Part shown: piece after piece, positions 18,546 to 59,135 of the stretch
Layout: every line of letters starts with the position of its first letter
Position numbering within the stretch: position 1 is the first letter of the stretch
NCBI GenBank assembly: GCA_964639585.1
Contig: CAZXDK010000005.1
Location: 5,398-69,397, forward strand
Direction: 5' to 3'
DNA: 64,000 nt
Origin: an uncultured Gallionellaceae bacterium
GTDB lineage: Bacteria; Pseudomonadota; Gammaproteobacteria; Burkholderiales; Gallionellaceae
The notes under the pieces: generated by a model
What the model saw: the letters and a program-made list of their open reading frames with translations, nothing else
Told to the model about the DNA's origin: nothing
Databases searched by the model: none
Made by a program: the position numbers and the translations under genes

Positions 18546-18639
18546 GGGTAGGGTAGGCACGTTGTTTGTGCCCACGCGGTGGGGTTGCGATTGGTCAAAC
18601 ACCGCTCCGCGTGGGCACAAACAACGTGCCCACCCTACG
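18546..18639. repeat. REP-type inverted pair (GTAGGGTRGGCAC..GTGCCCACGCGG family)
   Basis: The arm at 18546..18579 is the reverse complement of the arm at 18608..18639. Each arm is itself a small hairpin. Located between the nnrD stop and the neighbouring gene start. Confidence 0.9.
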
Positions 18640-18640
18640 G

Positions 18641-19600
18641 TTATTTTTTTATCCACTGGTTTAACAACCACCTCGCCCACTCGGTCACTTCCGTTGCGCT
18701 CATGCCTATGGTCGCCTGTTGTTGTGCCAGCGCATCGCCCGCCGCGCCGTGCAGGTGCACGCCGAGCAGCAGCGTTTCGTCGGCGCTCAGCCCCTGCGCC
18801 ATGAAGGCGGCGATCATGCCAGCGAGTACGTCGCCCATGCCCGCGCTGCTCATGCCGGGGTTGCCGGTCTGGTTGAGGTGCAGTTTGCCGTCGCGGGTGG
18901 CGCAAATGCTGCCCGCGCCTTTCAGCACCACGCTGCCGCCCAGTTTTTTGGCCAGAGCCAGCGCGGCCGCGGGACGGTCGGATTGAATCTCTTCGCTGCT
19001 GCAACCCAGCAGGCGCGCTGCTTCGCCGGGATGCGGGGTGAATACGGCGGGCGCTTTGCGGCTGTGCAGCAGGCTGCGCAGGTCGGGGCGCAACGCGATG
19101 ATGTTGAGCGCATCGGCGTCCAGCACGGTGGGTGTGTCGAGCAACAGCGCGTCATACACCAGCTTTTGCGCTGTGAGGCTGTGTCCCAGACCGCAACCGA
19201 GCACCAGCACAGATAAACAAGATTGCATTTCTCGTTCGCCTCCTCGCCCGCTTGCGGGAGAGGATTGAGGAGAGGGCATTTGAGGGGGAGGGAGACTTTT
19301 CAGCGTAGCACCGGCACTATTCAGCATCAGCTCCGGCATCTGCCCGTCCACCGCCGGGGCGTTGTCCGCCAATAGCCCCACATGCACGCAACCCGCGCCC
19401 AGCTTGAGTGCGGCGCGCCCGGCCAGCAATGCCGCGCCGACCATGCCGCGGTCGCCGCCGATAACGGCAACCGTACCGAACATGCCTTTATGGCTGTCTT
19501 GGGGACGGGGCTTGAGGAATGAGGCAACTTGTTTTTGGGTGATGGGCGGGATGCGAATTGCGGGCATGTTGTTTTTATGAGAGTGGATGACGTGCTGCAT
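18641..19600 (-). CDS. nnrD: ADP-dependent NAD(P)H-hydrate dehydratase (YjeF C-terminal domain)
   Basis: HKGMFGTVAVIGGDRGMVGAALLAGRAALKLGAG, VLGCGLG, VVLKGAGS and GMSSAGMGDVLAGMIAAF. The start may be the internal MPAIR. Contains an in-frame repeat element (see findings). Confidence 0.88.
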   Translation of the reverse strand: MQHVIHSHKNNMPAIRIPPITQKQVASFLKPRPQDSHKGMFGTVAVIGGDRGMVGAALLAGRAALKLGAGCVHVGLLADNAPAVDGQMPELMLNSAGATLKSLPPPQMPSPQSSPASGRGGEREMQSCLSVLVLGCGLGHSLTAQKLVYDALLLDTPTVLDADALNIIALRPDLRSLLHSRKAPAVFTPHPGEAARLLGCSSEEIQSDRPAAALALAKKLGGSVVLKGAGSICATRDGKLHLNQTGNPGMSSAGMGDVLAGMIAAFMAQGLSADETLLLGVHLHGAAGDALAQQQATIGMSATEVTEWARWLLNQWIKK

Positions 19601-19642: not shown

Positions 19643-22600
19643 ATGTCCAGCGCTATTCGCAGCAAAATTTCCATCGGCAATCACGCTCTTTCCGCTTTTC
19701 GTCTCGAAAAACTCCGCACCGCGCTTAAAGCCGTCGCGCCGAACGTGAGTGTCGAAGATACGCGCCACTGGTATTTCAGCGAACTCAACTCGCCGCTGAC
19801 GGAGACCGAAGAAAAGCTGCTGGAGCGTTTGCTGAATCTGGATGCGAGAGCCCCCCGGCCCGCAGACAATTTGCAAAAGCTGTTGGTCGTGCCGCGTCTG
19901 GGCACGATCTCGCCGTGGTCGTCCAAAGCCACCGACATTGCGCAGCACTGCGCTTTGCCCAATGTTTCGCGCATCGAGCGCGGCGTGGTGTATTACTTGA
20001 GCAGCAAGAGCGGCAAGCCGCTGGGCGACGCCGAGATGAAGGCCGTGCTGCCGCTGCTGCACGATCGCATGACCGAATCGGTGGTGACGGACATCGCGGG
20101 CATCGAGAACAAAATATTCCAGCACGGCACACCGCAGCCGCTTTCCAGCGTGGACATCCTCAAGGGCGGCAAGGCCGCACTCGAAGCCGCGAACCGCGAA
20201 CTCGGGCTGGCGCTCTCCGCCGACGAGATCGACTACCTCATCGAGAACTTCAGCAAGCTCAAACGCAATCCCACCGATGTCGAGCTGATGATGTTCGCGC
20301 AGGCCAACTCCGAGCACTGCCGCCACAAAATTTTCAACGCGGACTGGATCATCGACGATGAGCAGCAAGCCATCTCGCTGTTCGGCATGATCCGCAACAC
20401 GCACAAGCTGCACCCCGCAGGCACGGTGATCGCGTACTCCGATAACTCCTCTGTCATCGAAGGCGCCCATGTCGAGCGCTTTTATCCGCGCGCCGGCGGC
20501 GCGTACGAGTTCAGCAAAGAACTCACCCACACCCTGATGAAAGTGGAAACGCACAACCACCCGACCGCCATCGCGCCGTTTGCGGGTGCGGCCACCGGCT
20601 CGGGCGGCGAGATCCGCGACGAAGGCGCGACCGGCTCCGGCTCCAAACCCAAGGCGGGTCTCACCGGCTTCTCCGTTTCCAACCTGAATATCCCCGGTTT
20701 CGAACAGCCGTGGGAAGCCGACCCCATCGGCAAACCGGGACGCATCGCCACCCCGTTGCAGATCATGATCGACGGCCCCTTGGGCGGTGCCGCGTTCAAC
20801 AACGAGTTCGGCCGCCCCAATTTGACCGGCTACTTCCGCACCTTCGAAGAGAGCGTCAACGGTGAAGTGCGCGGCTACCACAAGCCCATCATGCTCGCGG
20901 GCGGCGTGGGCAACATCCGCGCCGACCACACGCACAAACACCAGTTGCCCGCAGGCGCCTTGCTCATCCAGCTCGGCGGCCCCGGCATGCTTATCGGTTT
21001 GGGCGGCGGTGCGGCATCCAGCATGGATACGGGCGCCAACGCCGAGAACCTCGACTTCGATTCCGTGCAGCGCGGCAACCCCGAGATGCAGCGCCGCGCG
21101 CAGGAAGTCATCGACCGCTGCTGGCAGATGGGCAAGCACAATCCTATTCTCTCCATCCACGACGTCGGCGCGGGCGGTATTTCCAACGCGCTGCCCGAGC
21201 TGGTGCACGGCGGCGGCAAGGGCGCGAAGTTCGAACTGCGCGCCGTGCCTAGCGAAGAGCGCGGCATGTCGCCGATGCAGATATGGAGCAACGAAGCGCA
21301 AGAGCGTTACGTGCTCGCCATCCCGCCCGAGCGTCTGGAAGAATTCACCGCCATGTGCGAACGCGAGCGCTGCCCGTTCGCCGTGCTGGGCAAGGCCGTT
21401 GTGGGCGACCAGCTCACCGTGCACGACGCCGAATTCAACAACCATCCGGTGAACATGCCGCTCTCCGTGCTGCTGGGCAAGCCGCCCAAGATGACGCGCA
21501 AAGTGAAGCGCGAAAAAGCGCGCATGCCCAAGTTCGACACTGCCGGTATCGAATTGAAAGACGCCATCGCCCGTGTGTTGCGCCTGCCCAGCGTGGCCGA
21601 CAAAACCTTCCTCATCTCCATCGGCGACCGCACCGTGGGCGGCATGACCGCGCGCGACCAGATGGTCGGCCCGTGGCAAGTGCCGGTGGCGGATGTGGCG
21701 GTCACTCTGATGGGCTTCAACACTTATCTGGCCGAAGCCTTCGCGCTCGGCGAACGCACCCCCATCGCCGTGCTCAACGCGCCCGCATCCGGCCGCATGG
21801 CGATAGGCGAGGCCATCACCAACATCGCCGCCGCACGCATCGAAAAGATCGGCGACATCAAACTCTCCGCCAACTGGATGGCGGCCGCCGGACACCACGG
21901 CGAAGACGCCGCACTGTTCGACACCGTTGAAGCGGTGGGTATGGAGCTGTGCCCGCAACTCGGCATCAGCATCCCCGTGGGCAAAGATTCGATGAGCATG
22001 AAGACCTCTTGGCTAGAAGAGGGCGTTCCCTCCCCCGCCGGGGGAGGGCTAGGGAGAGGGGACACTTCAGGCAACGGAGCGGTAAAAAAAGAAGTCATTG
22101 CCCCCCTGTCGCTCATCGTTACCGCCTTCGCGCCGTGCAGCGATGCGCGCAAGACCCTCACGCCGCAACTTGAGGCGGACACCGATACCGTAGTGTTGCT
22201 GTTCGATCTGGGCTGCGGACGGAACCGCTTGGGCGGCTCGGCGCTGGCGCAGGTCTACAAACAGGTCGGCGACATCGCGCCGGATGTAAACGACGCGCAC
22301 AAGCTCAAGACTTTCTTCGACATCATCCAGCGTTTCAATCGCGAAGACCGCTTGCTGGCCTACCACGACCGTTCCGACGGCGGCATGCTGGCAGCGCTGT
22401 GCGAAATGTCTTTCGCTTCGCACATCGGTCTGGACATCTGTCTGGATGAACTCAAGGGCGACGACCTCGCCGCGCTGTTCAACGAAGAACTCGGCGCGCT
22501 GGTGCAAGTGCGCCGCGCCGATCTGGCCGACATCTTTGTGCAGTGCGACGAAGCGGGGCTGGGCAGCGTGCATGAAGTGGCGCGCCTCAACACTAATGGC

Positions 22601-23614
22601 ACGATACAAATTTTGCGCGGCGGCAAAACGCTGTACAGCGAGAACGCCATCACGCTGCGCCGCATCTGGTCCGAAACGACTTACCAGATGCAGAAGCTGC
22701 GCGACAATCCCGCGTGCGCACAGCAAGAGTTCGACCGCACGCTGGATGCGCATGACGCAGGTCTACATGTGAAGCTGACTTACGATCCGAACGAGAATCC
22801 GGCAGCGGTCCTCAATCCTCAATCCTCAATCCTCATTCCTAAAGCCCGTCCCAAGATGGCCATCCTGCGCGAGCAGGGCGTCAACGGCCAGGTGGAGATG
22901 GCCGCCGCGTTCGACCGCGCCGGATTCGCCGCCGTGGATGTACACATGAGCGACATCATCAGCGGTCGCGTGAAGCTGGCCGACTTCAAGGGCGTGGCCG
23001 CCTGCGGCGGATTCTCCTACGGCGACGTGCTGGGTGCGGGCGAGGGCTGGGCAAAATCAATCCTGTTCAACCCCAGAGCGCGCGACGAATTCGAAGCCTT
23101 CTTCAAACGCAACGACACCTTTGCCTTGGGCGTGTGCAACGGCTGCCAGATGATGAGCAACCTGCACGAGATCATCCCCGGCGCCGAGCATTGGGCGCAC
23201 TTCGCGCGCAACCAGTCAGAGCAATTCGAAGCGCGTTTCGTCATGGTCGAAGTGCAGCAGTCGCCGTCCATCCTGTTCGAGGGCATGGCCGGTAGCCGCA
23301 TGCCCATCGTCGTGGCGCATGGCGAAGGCTATGCCGACTTTGGCAACGCCGCGAAACTGAAAGCCGCGCAGCCGCTGGTGTCGCTGCGCTATGTCGATCA
23401 TGCGGGCAAGCCCACCGAGACCTATCCGCTCAACCCCAACGGTTCACCGCAGGGCATCACCGGACTCACCACGCCGGATGGCCGCTTCAGCATCATGATG
23501 CCGCACCCCGAGCGCGTGTTCCGCGCCGTGCAAAACTCGTGGTATCCGCGTGTGTGGCGCGAGAACGGCGCATGGCTGCGCATGTTCCAGAATGCTAGGA
23601 AGTGGGTGGGGTAG
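19643..23614 (+). CDS. purL: Phosphoribosylformylglycinamidine synthase, single-chain large form
   Basis: 1323 aa. Contains [35 protein letters not shown] and the C-terminal amidotransferase motif GVCNGCQMM...HPER. Confidence 0.97.
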
Positions 23615-24276: not shown

Positions 24277-24309
24277 TGTAGTGCAGCGTTCTTAACGGCA
24301 CTTATGCTC

Positions 24310-24422
24310 CCTTCCCCCGCAGGCGGGGGAAGGGCAGGGGATGAGGGGTGCTGAGTACGTCACAAATTTGTTTCAACTTGCCATCCCTCACCCCAACCCC
24401 TCTCCCGCCTGCGGGAGAGGGG
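24310..24422. repeat. Inverted pair of the GC-rich palindromic element (intergenic copies)
   Basis: First copy: CCTTCCCCCGCAGGCGGGGGAAGG followed by GCAGGGGATGAGGGG. Second copy: CCCTCACCCCAACCCC followed by TCTCCCGCCTGCGGGAGA. The two are in opposite orientation. Confidence 0.85.
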
Positions 24423-25952: not shown

Positions 25953-26153
25953 ATGAATGTTAAACCGATTCGCAACGACGACGATTTGCGTGCCGTATTC
26001 AAACGGATGGAGCGCGTATACCAAGCGCAAGAGGGAACACTTGCAGCGGACGAGATGGAAATTCTCGTCACGCTGATTGAGGCATACGAACACAAACACT
26101 TTCCGATAGGTTTGGTTGATCCGGTCGAAGCCATCAAATTCAGAATGGAGTAG
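25953..26153 (+). pseudogene. Truncated higA-type antitoxin (N-terminal 66 codons only)
   Basis: About 90% identical by eye to 26904..27101. TAG replaces the CAG found in the full copy, and similarity ends just after it. GGGAGG Shine-Dalgarno sequence is present. Confidence 0.7.
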
Positions 26154-26248
26154 CAATTGTTCTTGCACCGTATGTGGGCAGGAAAATAATCCGAACTTCC
26201 CCTTTTTTGCTCTCTTGACGCTATGCGCCATTGGCGTATATTCTGCGC

Positions 26249-26903: not shown

Positions 26904-27260
26904 ATGAATATTAAACCGATCCGCAACGACGACGACTTGCGCGCCGCATTCAAACGGCTGGAGCGCGTGTACCAAGCGCAAGAGGGAACGCCAGCAGCGG
27001 ACGAGATGGAAATTCTCGTCACGCTGATCGAAGCATACGAACACAAACATTTTCCGATTGGATTGGTTGATCCGGTCGAAGCCATCAAATTCAGAATGGA
27101 GCAGCAAGGCCTGACTCAAAAAGACCTTGAGCCCTACATCGGCTCAAGCGGACGCGTTTCCGAAGTATTGAACCACAAGCGTCGGCTCAGTTTGCAAATG
27201 GTGCAGCGTCTGCATAACGGGCTGCACATCCCTTATGAAAGCTTGTGGTCTGCTCCATAG
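26904..27260 (+). CDS. HigA-family XRE HTH antitoxin (full length) with no adjacent cognate toxin
   Basis: MNIKPIRNDDDLRAAFKRLERV...EQQGLTQKDLEPYIGSSGRVSEVLNHKRRLSLQMVQRL. The alternative GTG start is at 26877. Confidence 0.78.
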   Translation: MNIKPIRNDDDLRAAFKRLERVYQAQEGTPAADEMEILVTLIEAYEHKHFPIGLVDPVEAIKFRMEQQGLTQKDLEPYIGSSGRVSEVLNHKRRLSLQMVQRLHNGLHIPYESLWSAP

Positions 27261-39915: not shown

Positions 39916-42537
39916 GTGCATAAAAATTTTGTGATCCGCAAAGTCGCCGTGCTGGGCGCGGGTGTGATGGGGGCGCAAATCGCCGCGCATCTGGTGAATG
40001 CCAATGTCGAGACGATGCTGTTTGAATTGCCCGCGCAAGAAGGCAGCCCTCACCCAGCCCCTCTCCCAGGGGGAGAGGGATCGATCGCCCTTTCCCCCTC
40101 TGGGGGAAAGTTGGATAGAGGGCAGAGCGTTGTGTCCTATGTTTCGTTAAACGGCAACGTGAACAAAGCGCTGGACGGCCTGAAAAAGCTGGAGCCGTCG
40201 CCCGTCTCCAGTCCGGCCAAAGTCACTTTCATCCAGCCCGCCAACTACGAACAGCATCTGGAAAAATTGCGCGAGTGCGACCTGGTGATTGAAGCCATCG
40301 CCGAGCGCATGGACTGGAAGTCCGACCTGTACCGCAAAGTCGCGCCGTTCCTCAATGAGCGCGCCATCTTTGCGACCAACACCTCCGGCCTTTCGATCAA
40401 CGAACTGGCGCAAGCCTTCCCCGACAATCTGCGCCACCGCTTCTGCGGCATCCACTTCTTCAACCCGCCGCGCTACATGCACCTGGTCGAATTGATCGCC
40501 TGCACCGGCACCGATGCCGCGCTGCTCGACCAACTGGAAACTTTCCTCGTCTCCACGCTGGGCAAAGGCGTGGTGCGCGCGAAGGACACGCCTAACTTCA
40601 TCGCCAACCGCATCGGCGTGTTTTCCATGCTCGCCACCAAGCACCATGCAGCCGCGTTCAACCTCGGCTTCGACACTGTGGATGCGCTCACCGGGCGTTA
40701 CCTCGGCCGCCCCAAGAGCGCCACCTTCCGCACGCTGGATGTGGTGGGATTGGATGTCTTCGCGCACGTGGTCAACACCATGCGCGAAAATCTCACCGAA
40801 GATCCGTGGCACCGGCATTTCGAACTGCCGAGCTGGTTCGGCTATCTGGTGGATCAGGGCGCGCTGGGGCAAAAAACCAAGCGCGGCATCTACCAGAAAA
40901 TCGGCAAAGAAATTCACGTACTCGATTTGCACACCAAGGAATATCGCCTGTCAGACGCCAAAGTGGACGACGAGGTCAAGGAAATTCTGCGCGAGCGCGA
41001 TTGGGGTATGAAGCTCTCCGGCCTGCGCCGCAACCCGCACCCGCAAGCGCAATTTCTGTGGGCGACTTTCCGCGACGTGTTCCACTACTGCGCGCTGCAA
41101 CTGGAACACATCGCCGACAACGCCCGCGATGTCGATCTCGCCGTGCGCTGGGGCTTCGGCTGGGACAATGGCCCGTTTGAAATCTGGCAAGCCGCAGGCT
41201 GGCAGCAAGTGGCTGGCTGGATCACCGCCGACATCGCCGCAGGCAAGTCCATGGCCAGCACGCCGCTGCCCGCATGGGCGACCGAAGAGGGTCGCACCGG
41301 AGTTCACACTGCGCACGGCAGTTATTCTCCTCTCCCGCAAGCGGGAGAGGGGGCGGGGGTGAGGGGTTATCAACAACGCTCCCAGCTCCCCGTCTACCGC
41401 CGCCAACTCTACCCCGACGCCCTCATCGGCGAAGACCGCCACTATGGCGAAACCGTGTTCGAGACCGCCGAAGTGCGTCTGTGGCACACGGGCGACAACA
41501 TCGCCATTTTGAGTTTTAAAACTAAAATGCACACCGTGAACAACGAGGTGCTGGACGGCGTTCTGCGCGCGGTGGACGAAGCCGAAGCGCATTTCAGCGC
41601 GCTTATCCTGTGGCAGACCGAGCCGCCGTTCTCCTACGGCGCCAACCTGCTGCAACTGATGCAGGGCGTGCACGAACCCGCGCAGGACACCGGTATGTTC
41701 GGCAAACTCAAACAGGCTGCGAACCGCGTCAAATATACCGTTGCGGGCGGCGGCGGCATAGTCTCCGTGTTCAACGCCGCCACCGGCAACGTGCCGCATG
41801 TCGAAGCCGTGGTTGCCAAATTCCAGCAAGCGTCGCAACGCCTCAAATACGCGCAAGTGCCCACCATCGCCGCAGTGGACGGCATGGCGCTCGGCGGCGG
41901 CTGCGAGTTTTCCATCCACTGCACGCGCATTGTCGCCACACTGGAAAGCTACATCGGTCTCGTCGAAGTCGGTGTCGGCGTATTGCCCGCCGGCGGCGGC
42001 TGCAAAGAAATGGCGCAACGCGCGGCACAAGAAGCGCAACGTTTTGCCAACGACAACCGCGTCGATGTGTTCCCCTTCCTGCGCCGCTACTTCCAGAACA
42101 TCGCCATGGGCGAAGTGGCCAAGAGCGCCGAAATGGCAAGAGAAATGGGCTACCTCAAACAGTCCGACCGCATCGTGCTGAATCGTTTTGAACTGCTGCA
42201 CATCGCCAAAGAAGAAGCCAAAGCCCTCAATGCCACTGCCTACCGCCCGCCTATGCACCAAAGCCAGATCGCCGTCGCCGGCCGCACCGGCATCGCCACC
42301 CTCAAAGCCGCGATGATCAACATGCGCGAAGGCGGCTTCATCTCCGAGCACGACTACAACATCGGCTGCCGTGTGGCCGAGACCTTATGCGGCGGCGATG
42401 TGGAAGCGGGTAGCTTGGTGGATGAAGATTGGCTGCTTGATCTGGAACGCAAGAACTTTATGGAACTGCTGGCGACGGAGAAGACGCAGGCGCGGATCGA
42501 ACACATGCTGAAGAACGGAAAGCCGTTGCGGAACTAG
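39916..42537 (+). CDS. Bifunctional 3-hydroxyacyl-CoA dehydrogenase / enoyl-CoA hydratase (FadB/FadN type)
   Basis: GTG at 39916 after GGGAGAAG and downstream of the terminator. Rossmann motif VAVLGAGVMGAQIAAHL, HFFNPPRYM, and a C-terminal crotonase-like region AAVDGMALGGGCEF. Contains two in-frame repeat insertions. Confidence 0.9.
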   Translation: MHKNFVIRKVAVLGAGVMGAQIAAHLVNANVETMLFELPAQEGSPHPAPLPGGEGSIALSPSGGKLDRGQSVVSYVSLNGNVNKALDGLKKLEPSPVSSPAKVTFIQPANYEQHLEKLRECDLVIEAIAERMDWKSDLYRKVAPFLNERAIFATNTSGLSINELAQAFPDNLRHRFCGIHFFNPPRYMHLVELIACTGTDAALLDQLETFLVSTLGKGVVRAKDTPNFIANRIGVFSMLATKHHAAAFNLGFDTVDALTGRYLGRPKSATFRTLDVVGLDVFAHVVNTMRENLTEDPWHRHFELPSWFGYLVDQGALGQKTKRGIYQKIGKEIHVLDLHTKEYRLSDAKVDDEVKEILRERDWGMKLSGLRRNPHPQAQFLWATFRDVFHYCALQLEHIADNARDVDLAVRWGFGWDNGPFEIWQAAGWQQVAGWITADIAAGKSMASTPLPAWATEEGRTGVHTAHGSYSPLPQAGEGAGVRGYQQRSQLPVYRRQLYPDALIGEDRHYGETVFETAEVRLWHTGDNIAILSFKTKMHTVNNEVLDGVLRAVDEAEAHFSALILWQTEPPFSYGANLLQLMQGVHEPAQDTGMFGKLKQAANRVKYTVAGGGGIVSVFNAATGNVPHVEAVVAKFQQASQRLKYAQVPTIAAVDGMALGGGCEFSIHCTRIVATLESYIGLVEVGVGVLPAGGGCKEMAQRAAQEAQRFANDNRVDVFPFLRRYFQNIAMGEVAKSAEMAREMGYLKQSDRIVLNRFELLHIAKEEAKALNATAYRPPMHQSQIAVAGRTGIATLKAAMINMREGGFISEHDYNIGCRVAETLCGGDVEAGSLVDEDWLLDLERKNFMELLATEKTQARIEHMLKNGKPLRN

Positions 42538-42551
42538 GGGCAAGGATTTTT

Positions 42552-42583
42552 GTAGGGTGGGCAGGTTTAATCTGCCCACGCGG
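42552..42583. repeat. Single REP unit of the GTAGGGTGGGCA family
   Basis: GTAGGGTGGGCAGGTTTAATCTGCCCACGCGG, located 15 nt after the fadB-type stop. Confidence 0.85.
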
Positions 42584-50107: not shown

Positions 50108-51532
50108 ATGATGCGGAGTGACGCCTTGGTCGCAGCCATCGACCGTGTTGCGCTAGCAACGGCTCTGCTGCAACACGGCGCAGATTTTCATCACAGTATC
50201 ACCGATCACCACGCGCATTTGTTTGCGGAGGCGGCGATACTGGTCTCGCCGGGACAATTGGCGCAAATGCAGGCTGTCATCTCCGCGGTGGAGGCGGTGG
50301 TGAGGCTGCCGGGATGGATGAGCGGTATCCCTAACCCTAACGGGCATGACAAGTGTGCCGCCCATGATAATGAAACTTGCCATACCCGTTTCCCTCACCT
50401 CAATCCTCTCCCAGAGGGAGAGGAGACAATCGAATCGCTACGCGAGTTTCACGTTAACCCTGATGGAGCTACTAGCCATACGACTAAGCCCGCAAGCGAG
50501 CAAGTCGCTGCTTATCTCCCGCAAGCAGGCGAGGGGACAAGCGCTGCACCTTCGGTGTATGGTAATAATCTCGGTGTTTTCTACGGTTACGACTTTCATT
50601 TGAACGCGGCGGGCGCGCATCTCATCGAGATCAACACCAATGCAGGCGGCGCGTTCCTGAATGCGCTGCTGTTGCAGAGCCAGCAGGATAGCGGTCTTCC
50701 GGGAACTTCTTCCGCACCGGAGTTGCTCGAACACCACATCGTCGAAATGTTCCGCAACGAATGGCGTTTGGAACGTGATGACGCCCCTCTGCAGACTATC
50801 GCCATCGTGGATGAGCAGCCCGCCGGGCAATATCTTTATCCCGAATTTATCCTGGCGCAGCAGATGTTCGGCCGTGCGGGCATGCAAGCCTTCATCGTCG
50901 ATCCGGTGGATTTATCGGCCAGGGCGAACGGGGTGTATCTGGGAGAGCAAAAGATCGACCTTATTTACAATCGCCTCACCGATTTTTCTCTGGAAAAATT
51001 TCCGGCTTTGCTGGCCGCTTATCAAGCCAAACATGTCGTGCTCACGCCCAATCCTGAAGGCTACCAACGCTATGCGGACAAACGCAATTTGGTGAAATTG
51101 ACCGACACCGGGTTTTTGCGCGGCATGGGGGCGGGCGAGGAGGTGATCAGCGTGCTGCAACAAGGCATTCCGCAAACACGTGTGGTCGGCGCGAACGATG
51201 CCGAGCAATGGTGGGCCGAGCGCAAGCAATGGTTTTTCAAACCGGTTTCAGGCTACGGCGCCAAGGGGGCTTATCGCGGCGACAAGATTACCCGCCGCGT
51301 GTTCGAGGAAATCCTCGCGGGCGATTACGTGGCGCAACAATTGGCGCAGCCGGGCGAGCGCCGGGTGATCGTGAACGGGGAAGCGACCGCGCTTAAATTT
51401 GACGTGCGCTGTTATGTCTACGACGGCAAAGTGCAACTGCTTGCCGCGCGCATGTATCAGGGACAGACCACCAATTTCAGAACGCCGGGTGGAGGGTTTG
51501 CGTTGGTGCGCGCAGGGGACGGTGAGGTTTGA
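50108..51532 (+). CDS. ATP-grasp-like (glutathionylspermidine-synthase-like) protein of unknown function
   Basis: GVFYGYDFHLNAAGAHLIEINTNAGG and WFFKPVSGYGAKGAYRGDK...KFDVRCYVYDGKV. The family call is tentative. Carries a repeat-derived low-complexity insert. Confidence 0.6.
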   Translation: MMRSDALVAAIDRVALATALLQHGADFHHSITDHHAHLFAEAAILVSPGQLAQMQAVISAVEAVVRLPGWMSGIPNPNGHDKCAAHDNETCHTRFPHLNPLPEGEETIESLREFHVNPDGATSHTTKPASEQVAAYLPQAGEGTSAAPSVYGNNLGVFYGYDFHLNAAGAHLIEINTNAGGAFLNALLLQSQQDSGLPGTSSAPELLEHHIVEMFRNEWRLERDDAPLQTIAIVDEQPAGQYLYPEFILAQQMFGRAGMQAFIVDPVDLSARANGVYLGEQKIDLIYNRLTDFSLEKFPALLAAYQAKHVVLTPNPEGYQRYADKRNLVKLTDTGFLRGMGAGEEVISVLQQGIPQTRVVGANDAEQWWAERKQWFFKPVSGYGAKGAYRGDKITRRVFEEILAGDYVAQQLAQPGERRVIVNGEATALKFDVRCYVYDGKVQLLAARMYQGQTTNFRTPGGGFALVRAGDGEV

Positions 51533-57241: not shown

Positions 57242-57312
57242 CCCCCTCCAACTCCCCCTTGTCCGGGGGGGAGAATCGGCTCCTCCCCTGATAAGGGGAG
57301 GCTGGGAGGGGT
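57242..57312. repeat. Inverted pair of the GC-rich palindromic element (intergenic)
   Basis: CTCCCCCTTGTCCGGGGGGGAG and CTCCTCCCCTGATAAGGGGAGG, each with a G/C-rich tail (CCCCCTCCAA and CTGGGAGGGG). Confidence 0.75.
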
Positions 57313-58483: not shown

Positions 58484-59050
58484 ATGAAAAAATTCGTAGC
58501 ACTGACACTCGCATCCCTGTTGTCTTCCGTTGCTTATGCTGCACCGGAAACTTATGTGATCGAACCCTCGCACTCCATGCCGCGCTTCGAGTACAGTCAC
58601 TTCGGCTATTCTTTGCAGTTCAGCCGTTTCGATACGATTGCCGGAAAAATTACCATTGATCGTGCCGCCAAATCCGGCTCGGTGGATGTGACGATTGATG
58701 CAAAGTCGGTGAATACCGGTTCCACTTTGTTCAACGGCCATATTCAGGGCGAAGATTTTTTCGACACCGCCAAATATCCCGCCATTACTTTCAAATCGAA
58801 CAAGGTGAAGTTTGACGGCGATAAAGTGGCATCAGTGGATGGCGAGCTGACCGTTAAAGGCATCACCAAGCCGGTGGTTCTGACCGTCAACTCCTTCCTG
58901 TGCATGCCGCATCCGATGTTAAAGAAAGATGCCTGCGGTGCAACCGCCACCGCCAAGGTTAAACGCTCCGATTTCAACATGGGCAAGTACGCGCCTCATG
59001 TGGGCGACGAAGTGACGCTGACGATTCCGGTCGAGTCGATCAAGCAGTAA
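58484..59050 (+). CDS. YceI family periplasmic protein (second copy)
   Basis: ATG at 58484 after AAGGAG. Signal peptide MKKFVALTLASLLSSVAYA. Contains LTVKGITKPVVLTV and KVKRSDFNMG. Confidence 0.9.
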   Translation: MKKFVALTLASLLSSVAYAAPETYVIEPSHSMPRFEYSHFGYSLQFSRFDTIAGKITIDRAAKSGSVDVTIDAKSVNTGSTLFNGHIQGEDFFDTAKYPAITFKSNKVKFDGDKVASVDGELTVKGITKPVVLTVNSFLCMPHPMLKKDACGATATAKVKRSDFNMGKYAPHVGDEVTLTIPVESIKQ

Positions 59051-59055
59051 TTTAT

Positions 59056-59135
59056 GCGTAGGGTGGGCACGTTTTTTGTGCCCACGCTGTATGTATATGG
59101 AAAAACGCGTGGGCACAAAATACGTGCCCACCCTA
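59056..59135. repeat. REP-type inverted pair (same family as 18546..18639)
   Basis: GCGTAGGGTGGGCACGTTTTTTGTGCCCACGC paired with GCGTGGGCACAAAATACGTGCCCACCCTAC. Confidence 0.9.

Follow-up and report, generated by a model that had tools for sequence, protein, structure and literature searches.

How does a short GC-rich palindrome come to lie, in frame and more than once, within conserved genes of a single stretch of bacterial DNA? The stretch considered here, hereafter the window, comprises 64 kb from an uncultured member of the Gallionellaceae, and the closest named homologs of its proteins belong to Gallionella, Sideroxydans and Sideroxyarcus. A first-pass annotation, made from the sequence without database searches, had described in it a palindromic element with a type copy at positions 41326-41367 (+) of a fadB-type gene, and had taken this element to be uncharacterised. 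It is a repeat that already bears several names, BoxC, PIT and TM_ECO. BoxC has been on record in E. coli since the 1990s, without general agreement on its function, its origin or the way it spreads. We found that its genic copies in the window are insertions, that the same unit occurs in many bacterial phyla and that, in other genomes, two units with matched ends bound a small gene for a DUF559 endonuclease. We consider it probable, though well short of certain, that BoxC is a selfish repeat, most likely a non-autonomous remnant of a DUF559 cassette of about 0.4 kb, whose coding insertions survive at tolerant sites.

The palindrome is a BoxC unit with three arms

Units were detected with a pattern finder built from the published motif, an arm-agnostic hairpin scan and a test of the mirror rule described below. 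The window contains 11 of them, 10 clear and one degenerate. The arm-agnostic scan returned nine perfect hairpins made of a pyrimidine arm and a purine arm (at 22028, 24309, 24397, 40059, 40090, 41329, 50404, 57252 and 57282), as compared with 0-1 in shuffled sequence, besides an imperfect hairpin at 19241 and a degenerate one at 50513. With up to 3 mismatches allowed, the 22-nt stem-loop of the type copy matched three sites of the window, each on both strands because the stem-loop is palindromic, and none in 100 dinucleotide-preserving shuffles; the hairpin-plus-tail pattern gave three exact matches, where 0 were expected. The copies form one family, present in both orientations, as had been annotated, and they include three inverted pairs. 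Every site of the earlier list holds a unit and its count of eleven is fair, with the reservation that 50513-50537 is merely a degenerate hairpin lacking the third arm.

In a complete unit, a pyrimidine arm and its complementary purine arm enclose a loop of 3-6 nt (8 nt in a single copy), and a second purine arm follows after a spacer of about 3 nt. In the type copy these parts read, in order from the pyrimidine arm, (T)CCTCTCCC, GCAAGC, GGGAGAGGG, GGC and GGGGGTGAGGG; as originally quoted, this copy is in frame with the fadB-type open reading frame (ORF), where it lies in the interdomain linker and encodes SPLPQAGEGAGVRG. The stems vary among copies (CCCTCTCCC, CCCTCCCCC, CCCTTCCCCC, CTTTCCCCC, CCTCCCCT) with complementarity kept, and the second purine arm mirrors the first, an A being answered by A or T. 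Among the seven asymmetric perfect hairpins of the window, a mirror reading fitted better in five and a direct reading in one, with one tie, and the lone direct case, that of the type copy, is a register artefact; for the asymmetric arms of hairpins at the metagenome DUF559 loci described below, the ratio of mirror to direct readings was 90:12, with 26 ties. The three arms thus covary. The third arm also explains the 'tail' that had been noted behind the stem-loop: the stem-loop stands, and the tail is a mirror of the G-arm rather than a loose run of G. At the level of sequence, three arms in this mirror order characterise a purine-motif intrastrand triplex, and the G-runs of the units also meet the G-quadruplex pattern. 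One and the same strand could accordingly adopt a hairpin, a purine-motif triplex or a G-quadruplex.

These features are those of a motif described in E. coli as TM_ECO, CCCTCNCCC N3-6 GGGNGAGGG N3 GGGNGAGGG (Holder 2015, PMC4666352), which had previously gone by the name of BoxC and, later, of PIT element, according to Holder 2015 and, as relayed there, Hoyne/Maher 2000. The units of the window conform to this pattern, three of them with at most 1 mismatch, and have the second G-rich arm that the BoxC motif requires after a spacer of about 3 nt. They therefore belong to the BoxC / PIT / TM_ECO family. The units at 24385-24421, 40047-40079 and 41328-41365 are canonical (C-arm CCCTCNCCC, loop of 3-6 nt, G-arm GGGNGAGGG) and the others have variant complementary arms. 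The likeness extends from the three-block architecture and near-identical sequence (CCCTCTCCC, loop, GGGAGAGGG, NNN, GGGTGAGGG) to the many dispersed copies, single or in inverted pairs, found across taxa. Identical G-arm strings have been described as a G-quadruplex/hairpin switch, the HPGQ motif (Kaplan 2016, PMC5100583), and a paper on the Enterobacter 638 genome reports 100 palindromes of the form CCCTCTCCCxx(x)GGGAGAGGG. The isolated TM_ECO strand forms a stable purine-motif triplex in vitro, which was undetectable in vivo (PMC4666352); triplex and G-quadruplex formation thus refers to E. coli oligonucleotides in vitro, whereas the units of the window are known from their sequence.

Two inverted pairs of the window are intergenic. 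Downstream of a TPMT gene, 24309-24352 (+) and 24385-24421 (-) face each other with their tails inward across a 32-nt spacer; an empty site for this pair was not demonstrable, the downstream gene being a different one in the related locus L203. Between the pirin and cytochrome b561 genes, 57242-57275 (-) and 57277-57312 (+) have their tails outward and carry variant stems, again mirrored by the third arms.

Genic copies are lineage-specific in-frame insertions

The genic copies amount to seven units at six sites, one site each in nnrD and purL and two each in the fadB-type gene and in a gene with an ATP-grasp fold. That all genic copies leave the reading frame open had been offered as a sign of in-frame insertion. 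Insertion in frame was confirmed, but openness is weak evidence by itself, since random 35-mers of the window are nearly as open as the units (4.6 versus 5.0 of six frames); what matters is that each net insert length (75, 57, 99 and 24 bp) is divisible by three and that the host ORFs are intact. We used three relatives with about 90% nucleotide identity (L001, L203 and L204) to look for empty sites at the DNA level. Empty sites, a check suggested by the first-pass annotation, are present at this degree of identity as well as in distant orthologs, which have no homologous residues at the insertion positions. All genic copies are accordingly lineage-specific in-frame insertions, missing from close relatives, and presence and absence are polymorphic. 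To say that they sit 'inside essential genes', as had been written, is an overstatement.

The fadB-type gene (39916-42537, +; 873 aa), of the 3-hydroxyacyl-CoA dehydrogenase / enoyl-CoA hydratase family, carries three units at two sites. A 99-bp insert at 40051-40149, holding the units 40047-40079 (-) and 40090-40122 (+) with their tails outward, splits the Pfam match to the 3HCDH_N Rossmann domain. The second site is the linker that holds the type copy. Compared with a baseline of 825-832 aa among 120 homologs (at least 78% identity), the N-terminal insert is found in 12, and the linker site, GSYSP..YQPRS, is filled in 54 and empty in 66. At the DNA level, L001 (91% nucleotide identity) lacks the 99-bp insert and has, net, 24 nt fewer than the window at the linker.

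In nnrD (18641-19600, -; Carb_kinase family), a 75-bp insert at 19225-19299 contains the unit 19241-19276 (+), which reads TCCTCGCCC GCTTGC GGGAGAGGA TTG AGGAGAGGG and is followed by a G-rich stretch; the insert is missing from the L203 and L204 orthologs, whose product has 294 aa as compared with 319 aa in the window. The purL gene (19643-23614, +) encodes 1323 aa, versus a baseline of 1291-1296 aa, and its 57-bp insert at 22017-22073 (+) contains the unit 22028-22061, CCCTCCCCC GCC GGGGGAGGG CTA GGGAGAGGGG. This insert is also missing from L203 and L204, and most of 120 homologs show the baseline KEGEQN at its site.

The gene at 50108-51532 (+) has the most complex insert, a composite of about 59 aa (50330-50537) made of the unit 50393-50424 (-), an unrelated nested repeat (50462-50512) and the degenerate hairpin 50513-50537. 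It is missing in 40/40 representative homologs, the closest of which retains just PLPQKREGTS. The gene labels nnrD, purL and fadB-type were borne out by Pfam (Carb_kinase/NnrD, PurL, 3HCDH+ECH). For the ATP-grasp label, sequence and profile searches gave 0 matches in Pfam, NCBIfam and the PDB, and it was a fold search with an AlphaFold2 (AF2) model that supported it, by matching ATP-grasp folds of the glutathione-synthetase / glutathionylspermidine-synthase type. On the strength of this model, the product is predicted to represent an uncharacterised ligase family with a glutathione-synthetase-like ATP-grasp fold. The family counts about 1900 relatives, and the gene adjoins thiolase genes.

The proposal to map the insertion points onto structures could be followed in part. 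In the AF2 model of the ATP-grasp-fold protein (predicted local distance difference test score, pLDDT, 84.2), residues 80-148, which span the insert, are coil with a pLDDT below 50. The model of the FadB-type protein is poor overall (mean pLDDT 52.9) and only its Rossmann-domain site is readable, residues 42-76 appearing as coil between beta2 and a helix (pLDDT 26-38); the linker cannot be read. Salmonella PurL (1T3T) has no counterpart of the purL insert, which would be placed after W-Q-E near residue 795. The nnrD insert aligned poorly to the TM0922 and B. subtilis structures.

Hotspots and turnover in the Gallionellaceae

The sites occupied in the window are used repeatedly in the family. 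The FadB linker has received in-frame inserts from at least five unrelated repeat families in different Gallionellaceae lineages, with the peptides PLPQAGEGxGVRG (the BoxC family), a variant ending in ..GEGGAQRRERE, IPPNPPLxKGG..PPLQKGGRGDL, VGRDSSRQEAVGLKPDLQ and VGWIS..GGCATLIHPT. PurL has three hotspots, at which BoxC units occur singly or as dimers in varied frames and orientations (PLPxGEG.., PSPxGRGxGEG), with other elements nested within the inserts. Cultured organisms show the same behaviour: the FadB-type protein of Sideroxydans lithotrophicus (P0059) contains a related hairpin-encoding insert, PLPPAGEGGAQRRERE, with the ..GEGGAQRRERE tail variant, and PurL of the isolate Sideroxydans sp. 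CL21 (P0214) contains inserts from other repeat families. The phenomenon is therefore not an artefact of binning.

The load of units differs sharply between close lineages, as no such hairpin was found in 40 kb of DNA from the three close relatives, compared with nine perfect ones in the 64-kb window. The best-supported reading is that the Gallionellaceae, and this lineage especially, carry a high BoxC load.

Several further repeats were seen at insertion sites. The repeat nested in the ATP-grasp-fold gene (50462-50512) encodes PDGATSHTTKPASEQVAAY, contains CTAC (GTAG on the other strand) and has a BoxC unit on one side and a BoxC-type hairpin on the other. The PDGATSHTTKPASEQVAAY peptide is also nested inside the BoxC inserts of four PurL homologs (P0132, P0149, P0158 and P0183), so that this repeat seems to target or accompany BoxC units. 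Repeats of the type VRPEPVEG...HGSTSSGRT.. are in frame at hotspots of other Gallionellaceae, in FadB-type proteins (P0041, P0058) and in PurL (P0143, P0165, P0176), indicating that the hotspots collect several unrelated elements. At the third PurL hotspot (22800-22850 region, aa 1052-1068), where most homologs read VAPALLKS, the window differs and has 8 extra residues, which may be the relic of a former insert; relatives carry there BoxC dimers and repeats of the VRPEPVEG.. and VGRDLSRQ..VGLKSDLQ types.

BoxC units occur in many phyla

One genome per species was scanned with a 24-base signature, CTCTCCC N3-6 GGGAGAGG N1-8 GGGTGAGGG, for which the estimated chance expectation was about 0.1. 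At least 120 stretches matched, in many bacterial phyla. Among the matches listed are Proteobacteria (Rhodopseudomonas, Pseudomonas, Xanthomonas, Acinetobacter and one enterobacterium) and, elsewhere, Cyanobacteria (Nostoc, Leptolyngbya), Chloroflexota, Planctomycetota, Acidobacteriota, Verrucomicrobiota, a metagenome-assembled genome (MAG) of Bifidobacterium, Omnitrophica, Bipolaricaulota and others. The E. coli G-arm strings of Kaplan 2016 likewise recur across phyla. The 156 copies contained in the matches listed are 30-38 bp long and have sharp borders and unrelated flanks.

Solo units were also found in frame in genes of other phyla, with Pfam confirming the host protein: in the linker of an IcmF-like mutase (Acidobacteriota), in the adenylation domain of LigA (Planctomycetota), and in a molybdo-hydroxylase/cytochrome c protein, a transketolase, a GlcF-like protein and a YgiQ radical-SAM protein. 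This extends the published picture of 3610 copies in 262 proteobacterial genomes, 'always located intergenically' in E. coli K-12 (PMC4666352). As published, the motif is strictly intergenic in E. coli and resides mainly in Proteobacteria and Cyanobacteria, whereas 7/11 units of the window are in frame within genes, the signature has a much wider range of phyla, and cassettes with a DUF559 gene have the units as their ends. In the open-access literature we found no description of the 24-base signature in many phyla, of the PurL and FadB hotspots of the Gallionellaceae, of in-frame solo units in other phyla or of an association between BoxC and DUF559. Relative to the literature searched, what is new is in-frame genic residence, the hotspots and the DUF559 partner of an already known repeat family.

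Pairs of units bound DUF559 genes

In five of the 120 BoxC loci among the matches listed, a DUF559 gene or a fragment of one lies directly against the unit. The association was also approached from the protein side, by scanning metagenomes with a DUF559 profile, which provided 80 loci. A unit was found within 250 bp of the ends of the DUF559 gene in 47 of these, and on both sides in 23. Near the gene ends the density of units was 2.18 per kb, as compared with 0.046 per kb elsewhere in the loci, a 47-fold local enrichment. The commonest layout was unit (+), DUF559 gene, unit (-), with the third arms inward, in a cassette of 392-479 bp whose inverted symmetry continues 1-5 nt beyond the unit. 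The two ends of a cassette, variable loops included, resembled each other (0.914) more than they resembled the ends of different cassettes (0.813), and none of 2000 permutations reached 0.914.

Complete cassettes can themselves be read through in frame. One lies in a methionyl-tRNA synthetase (MetRS), between the anticodon-binding and the tRNA-binding domain (L018:1777-4515, -; betaproteobacterial MAG), another in an HrpA-like DEAH helicase, between DEAD and Helicase_C (L155:2029-5691, +; metagenome), and a third in a type I specificity subunit. In the MetRS and the HrpA-like protein, a whole nuclease domain is inserted without an intein or intron. The tails-inward pair of the window, 24309-24421, has the layout of a cassette with just 32 nt between its units, and a unit that adjoins a DUF559 gene in a metagenome locus (L145) matches its 37-mer 24385-24421 in every base; judging from these sequence features, the pair may be a deletion derivative of a DUF559 cassette.

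E. coli K-12 provides a related arrangement. A canonical unit lies about 170 bp past the 3' end of ycjD, in the ycjD-fabI spacer (L122:5200-5480), a hairpin overlaps the 3' end of ycjD and a duplicate of about 50 nt of this end is found alongside. Of 5426 complete E. coli genomes, 3377 have the full ycjD locus and 5145 match its BoxC part. One strain has an IS1 inside the ycjD locus.

The DUF559/YcjD family, of which we found at least 7979 proteins, sits in the Vsr / homing-endonuclease clade of the PD-(D/E)XK nucleases (Steczkiewicz 2012, PMC3424549). To the same superfamily clade belong the Vsr-like EDxHD homing endonucleases (I-Bth0305I, PDB 3r3p; PMC3424549), free-standing or carried by introns or inteins, which are also small selfish ORFs inside conserved genes. 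Unlike these, the DUF559 cassette has no intron or intein, is read in frame and is flanked by inverted repeats of a predicted triplex type.

How the units may have spread

An enzyme gene between inverted copies of a dispersed short palindrome has a known counterpart. REPtrons and REPINs (Bertels and Rainey; Nunvar) involve a single-copy gene for a RAYT, the tyrosine transposase associated with repetitive extragenic palindromes (REPs), which is flanked by inverted short palindromes that are also dispersed singly or in pairs. The DUF559 cassette resembles a REPtron in this respect, but encodes a Vsr-like PD-(D/E)XK nuclease instead of a Y1 transposase, measures only about 0.4 kb and can sit in frame in host genes. 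By analogy with REP and RAYT, the physical association and the matched ends suggest that the DUF559 protein moves BoxC units.

In the explanation that we favour, the BoxC unit would be a small selfish repeat that reaches new sites by copying, leaving sharp borders and no target-site duplication. Its source would be a cassette in which two units, as matched inverted repeats, surround the gene for a DUF559 endonuclease (YcjD-type, Vsr-like PD-(D/E)XK). A coding insertion would survive only if its net length is a multiple of three, if the frame used is free of stops and if the resulting peptide, rich in Pro, Gly, Ser and Glu and presumably neutral, falls in a tolerant loop or linker; such a restriction would produce hotspots. 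A wider proposal, to which we lean less and which may well prove wrong, is that of a selfish cassette of about 0.4 kb, pan-bacterial in range, with BoxC units as its terminal inverted repeats and a single gene, for a DUF559 endonuclease (YcjD-type, Vsr-like) that would recognise their hairpin or triplex ends. Solo units and pairs would be its non-autonomous derivatives; these derivatives and the full cassette would settle in frame in conserved genes, adding loops or, without splicing, a nuclease domain.

A number of observations weigh against a cassette origin. The query set consisted of the unit-associated DUF559 genes and YcjD, which biases the test to one subfamily, and nearby units are missing from 33/80 DUF559 loci, of which some are cut by contig ends. 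No DUF559 ORF was found in the window or in the 40 kb of related Gallionellaceae DNA, and the top DUF559 profile matches, mostly from Acinetobacter and E. coli, include no member from the Gallionellaceae. Tails-inward and tails-outward pairs are both present in the window. The full ycjD locus is lacking in 2049 of the 5426 complete E. coli genomes (38%), and most of these still match the unit, which shows that units persist without the gene. No direct repeat above control, hence no target-site duplication, was detected at the 156 solo units or at 19 cassettes; the duplication expected of a miniature inverted-repeat transposable element is therefore lacking, while inverted ends exist and reach 1-5 nt further than the unit. 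The activities known for Vsr-type enzymes are those of a mismatch nickase or a homing endonuclease rather than of a transposase, and TM_ECO was never seen with transposases or integrases (PMC4666352).

We considered the possibility that host replication and repair spread the units: the hairpin or triplex would stall forks, template switching or gene conversion between copies would multiply the units, and DUF559 would be a passenger exploiting them, or the user of a preferred landing site, instead of the mobilising enzyme. The lack of target-site duplications at solo units and cassettes and the persistence of units in E. coli genomes lacking ycjD speak for such a process, as do the link of the motif with local instability and its arrest of polymerase in vitro (PMC4666352). 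Other repeat families, moreover, nest in units and pile up at shared hotspots. Yet near-identical sequences of 33-37 nt with sharp borders in many phyla are hard to explain without copying and transfer, and the matched ends and constant unit-gene-unit layout resemble the ends of a discrete element. Spread by host repair seems to us rather unlikely, though it is a serious rival.

The units could instead be selected cis-regulatory or structural signals, such as a G-quadruplex/hairpin switch, a terminator or an mRNA stabiliser. A switch was proposed by Kaplan 2016 (PMC5100583) and a role in termination by the Enterobacter 638 genome paper, the intergenic pairs of the window lie just downstream of genes, and the covariation of the three arms shows that the potential to form a fold is maintained. 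This is difficult to reconcile with the location of 7/11 units within coding sequence and with a presence that varies among close relatives. Earlier work, as far as it is summarised in PMC4666352, reported neither promoter nor terminator activity, and Rfam gave 0 matches across the whole window at the gathering threshold. Selection for a regulatory function is an improbable account of the family.

Mobilisation by a RAYT, an IS200/IS605-like Y1 transposase, had been suggested for checking in the first-pass annotation, and BoxC units do share with REPs and REPINs their shortness, GC-richness and palindromic form and their occurrence as singletons and inverted pairs. In-frame intragenic REPs with GTAG/CGTC tags are known outside Rickettsia (Di Nocera 2013, PMC3733652). 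However, in the flank profile of the 156 copies neither border carried a GTAG or CGTC tag, on which ground we rejected membership in the REP/REPIN class; no RAYT turned up, the window not having been scanned for Y1 transposases, and the gene consistently flanked by units elsewhere encodes DUF559. The window does contain a genuine GTAG-tagged family, which is different and remains intergenic. We thus give very little credence to a RAYT-driven origin. The parallel with Rickettsia palindromic elements (RPEs), also drawn in that annotation, holds for behaviour alone. Like RPEs (Ogata 2000) and intragenic REPs (PMC3733652), the units insert in frame at tolerant sites of functional genes, where they contribute short peptide loops, and are found singly or as dimers; they are far shorter than RPE-1, have no sequence relation to the RPE families or to the tagged REPs and reside in a host other than Rickettsia. 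From the tagged intragenic REPs they differ by the lack of a tag, by the third mirror arm and by their partnership with DUF559 rather than RAYT.

Finally, that the genic copies are native low-complexity linkers evolved in place or metagenome assembly artefacts, as their linker-like Pro/Gly/Ser/Glu-rich peptides and the apparent metagenomic assembly of the window might suggest, is refuted by the empty sites in close and distant orthologs, by the same type of DNA unit in intergenic DNA and other phyla, and by the inserts of cultured S. lithotrophicus and Sideroxydans sp. CL21 and the intergenic unit of E. coli K-12, which leave this idea next to no probability.

Implications

DUF559/YcjD is a very large family without an assigned function, and BoxC has been re-described as a triplex and then as a G-quadruplex motif. 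If the units do derive from a DUF559 cassette, the spread of BoxC would have a testable explanation, in which YcjD acts on BoxC DNA. It would also provide, after the Rickettsia elements, a second and phylum-spanning case of tiny repeats remodelling conserved enzymes (PurL, LigA, MetRS, HrpA). Practical consequences concern gene calling, spurious 'PLPxGEG / PSPxGRG' hypothetical proteins and the alignment of orthologs.

Other repeats of the window

The separate GTAG-tagged palindromic family has the form GTAGG-GTGGGCAC-N7-GTGCCCAC and is found at 18553-18575, 18611-18633, 42557-42579, 59063-59085 and 59109-59131. Its members are inverted pairs or singles just 3' of nnrD, of the fadB-type gene and of an ORF ending at 59050; unlike BoxC, they are intergenic, and the family looks like a classical GTAG-REP/REPIN family. 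The window also contains a 204-nt direct repeat (25953-26156 and 26904-27107), 92% identical and 951 bp apart, in two adjacent small ORFs of the - strand, which is probably a tandem gene duplication.

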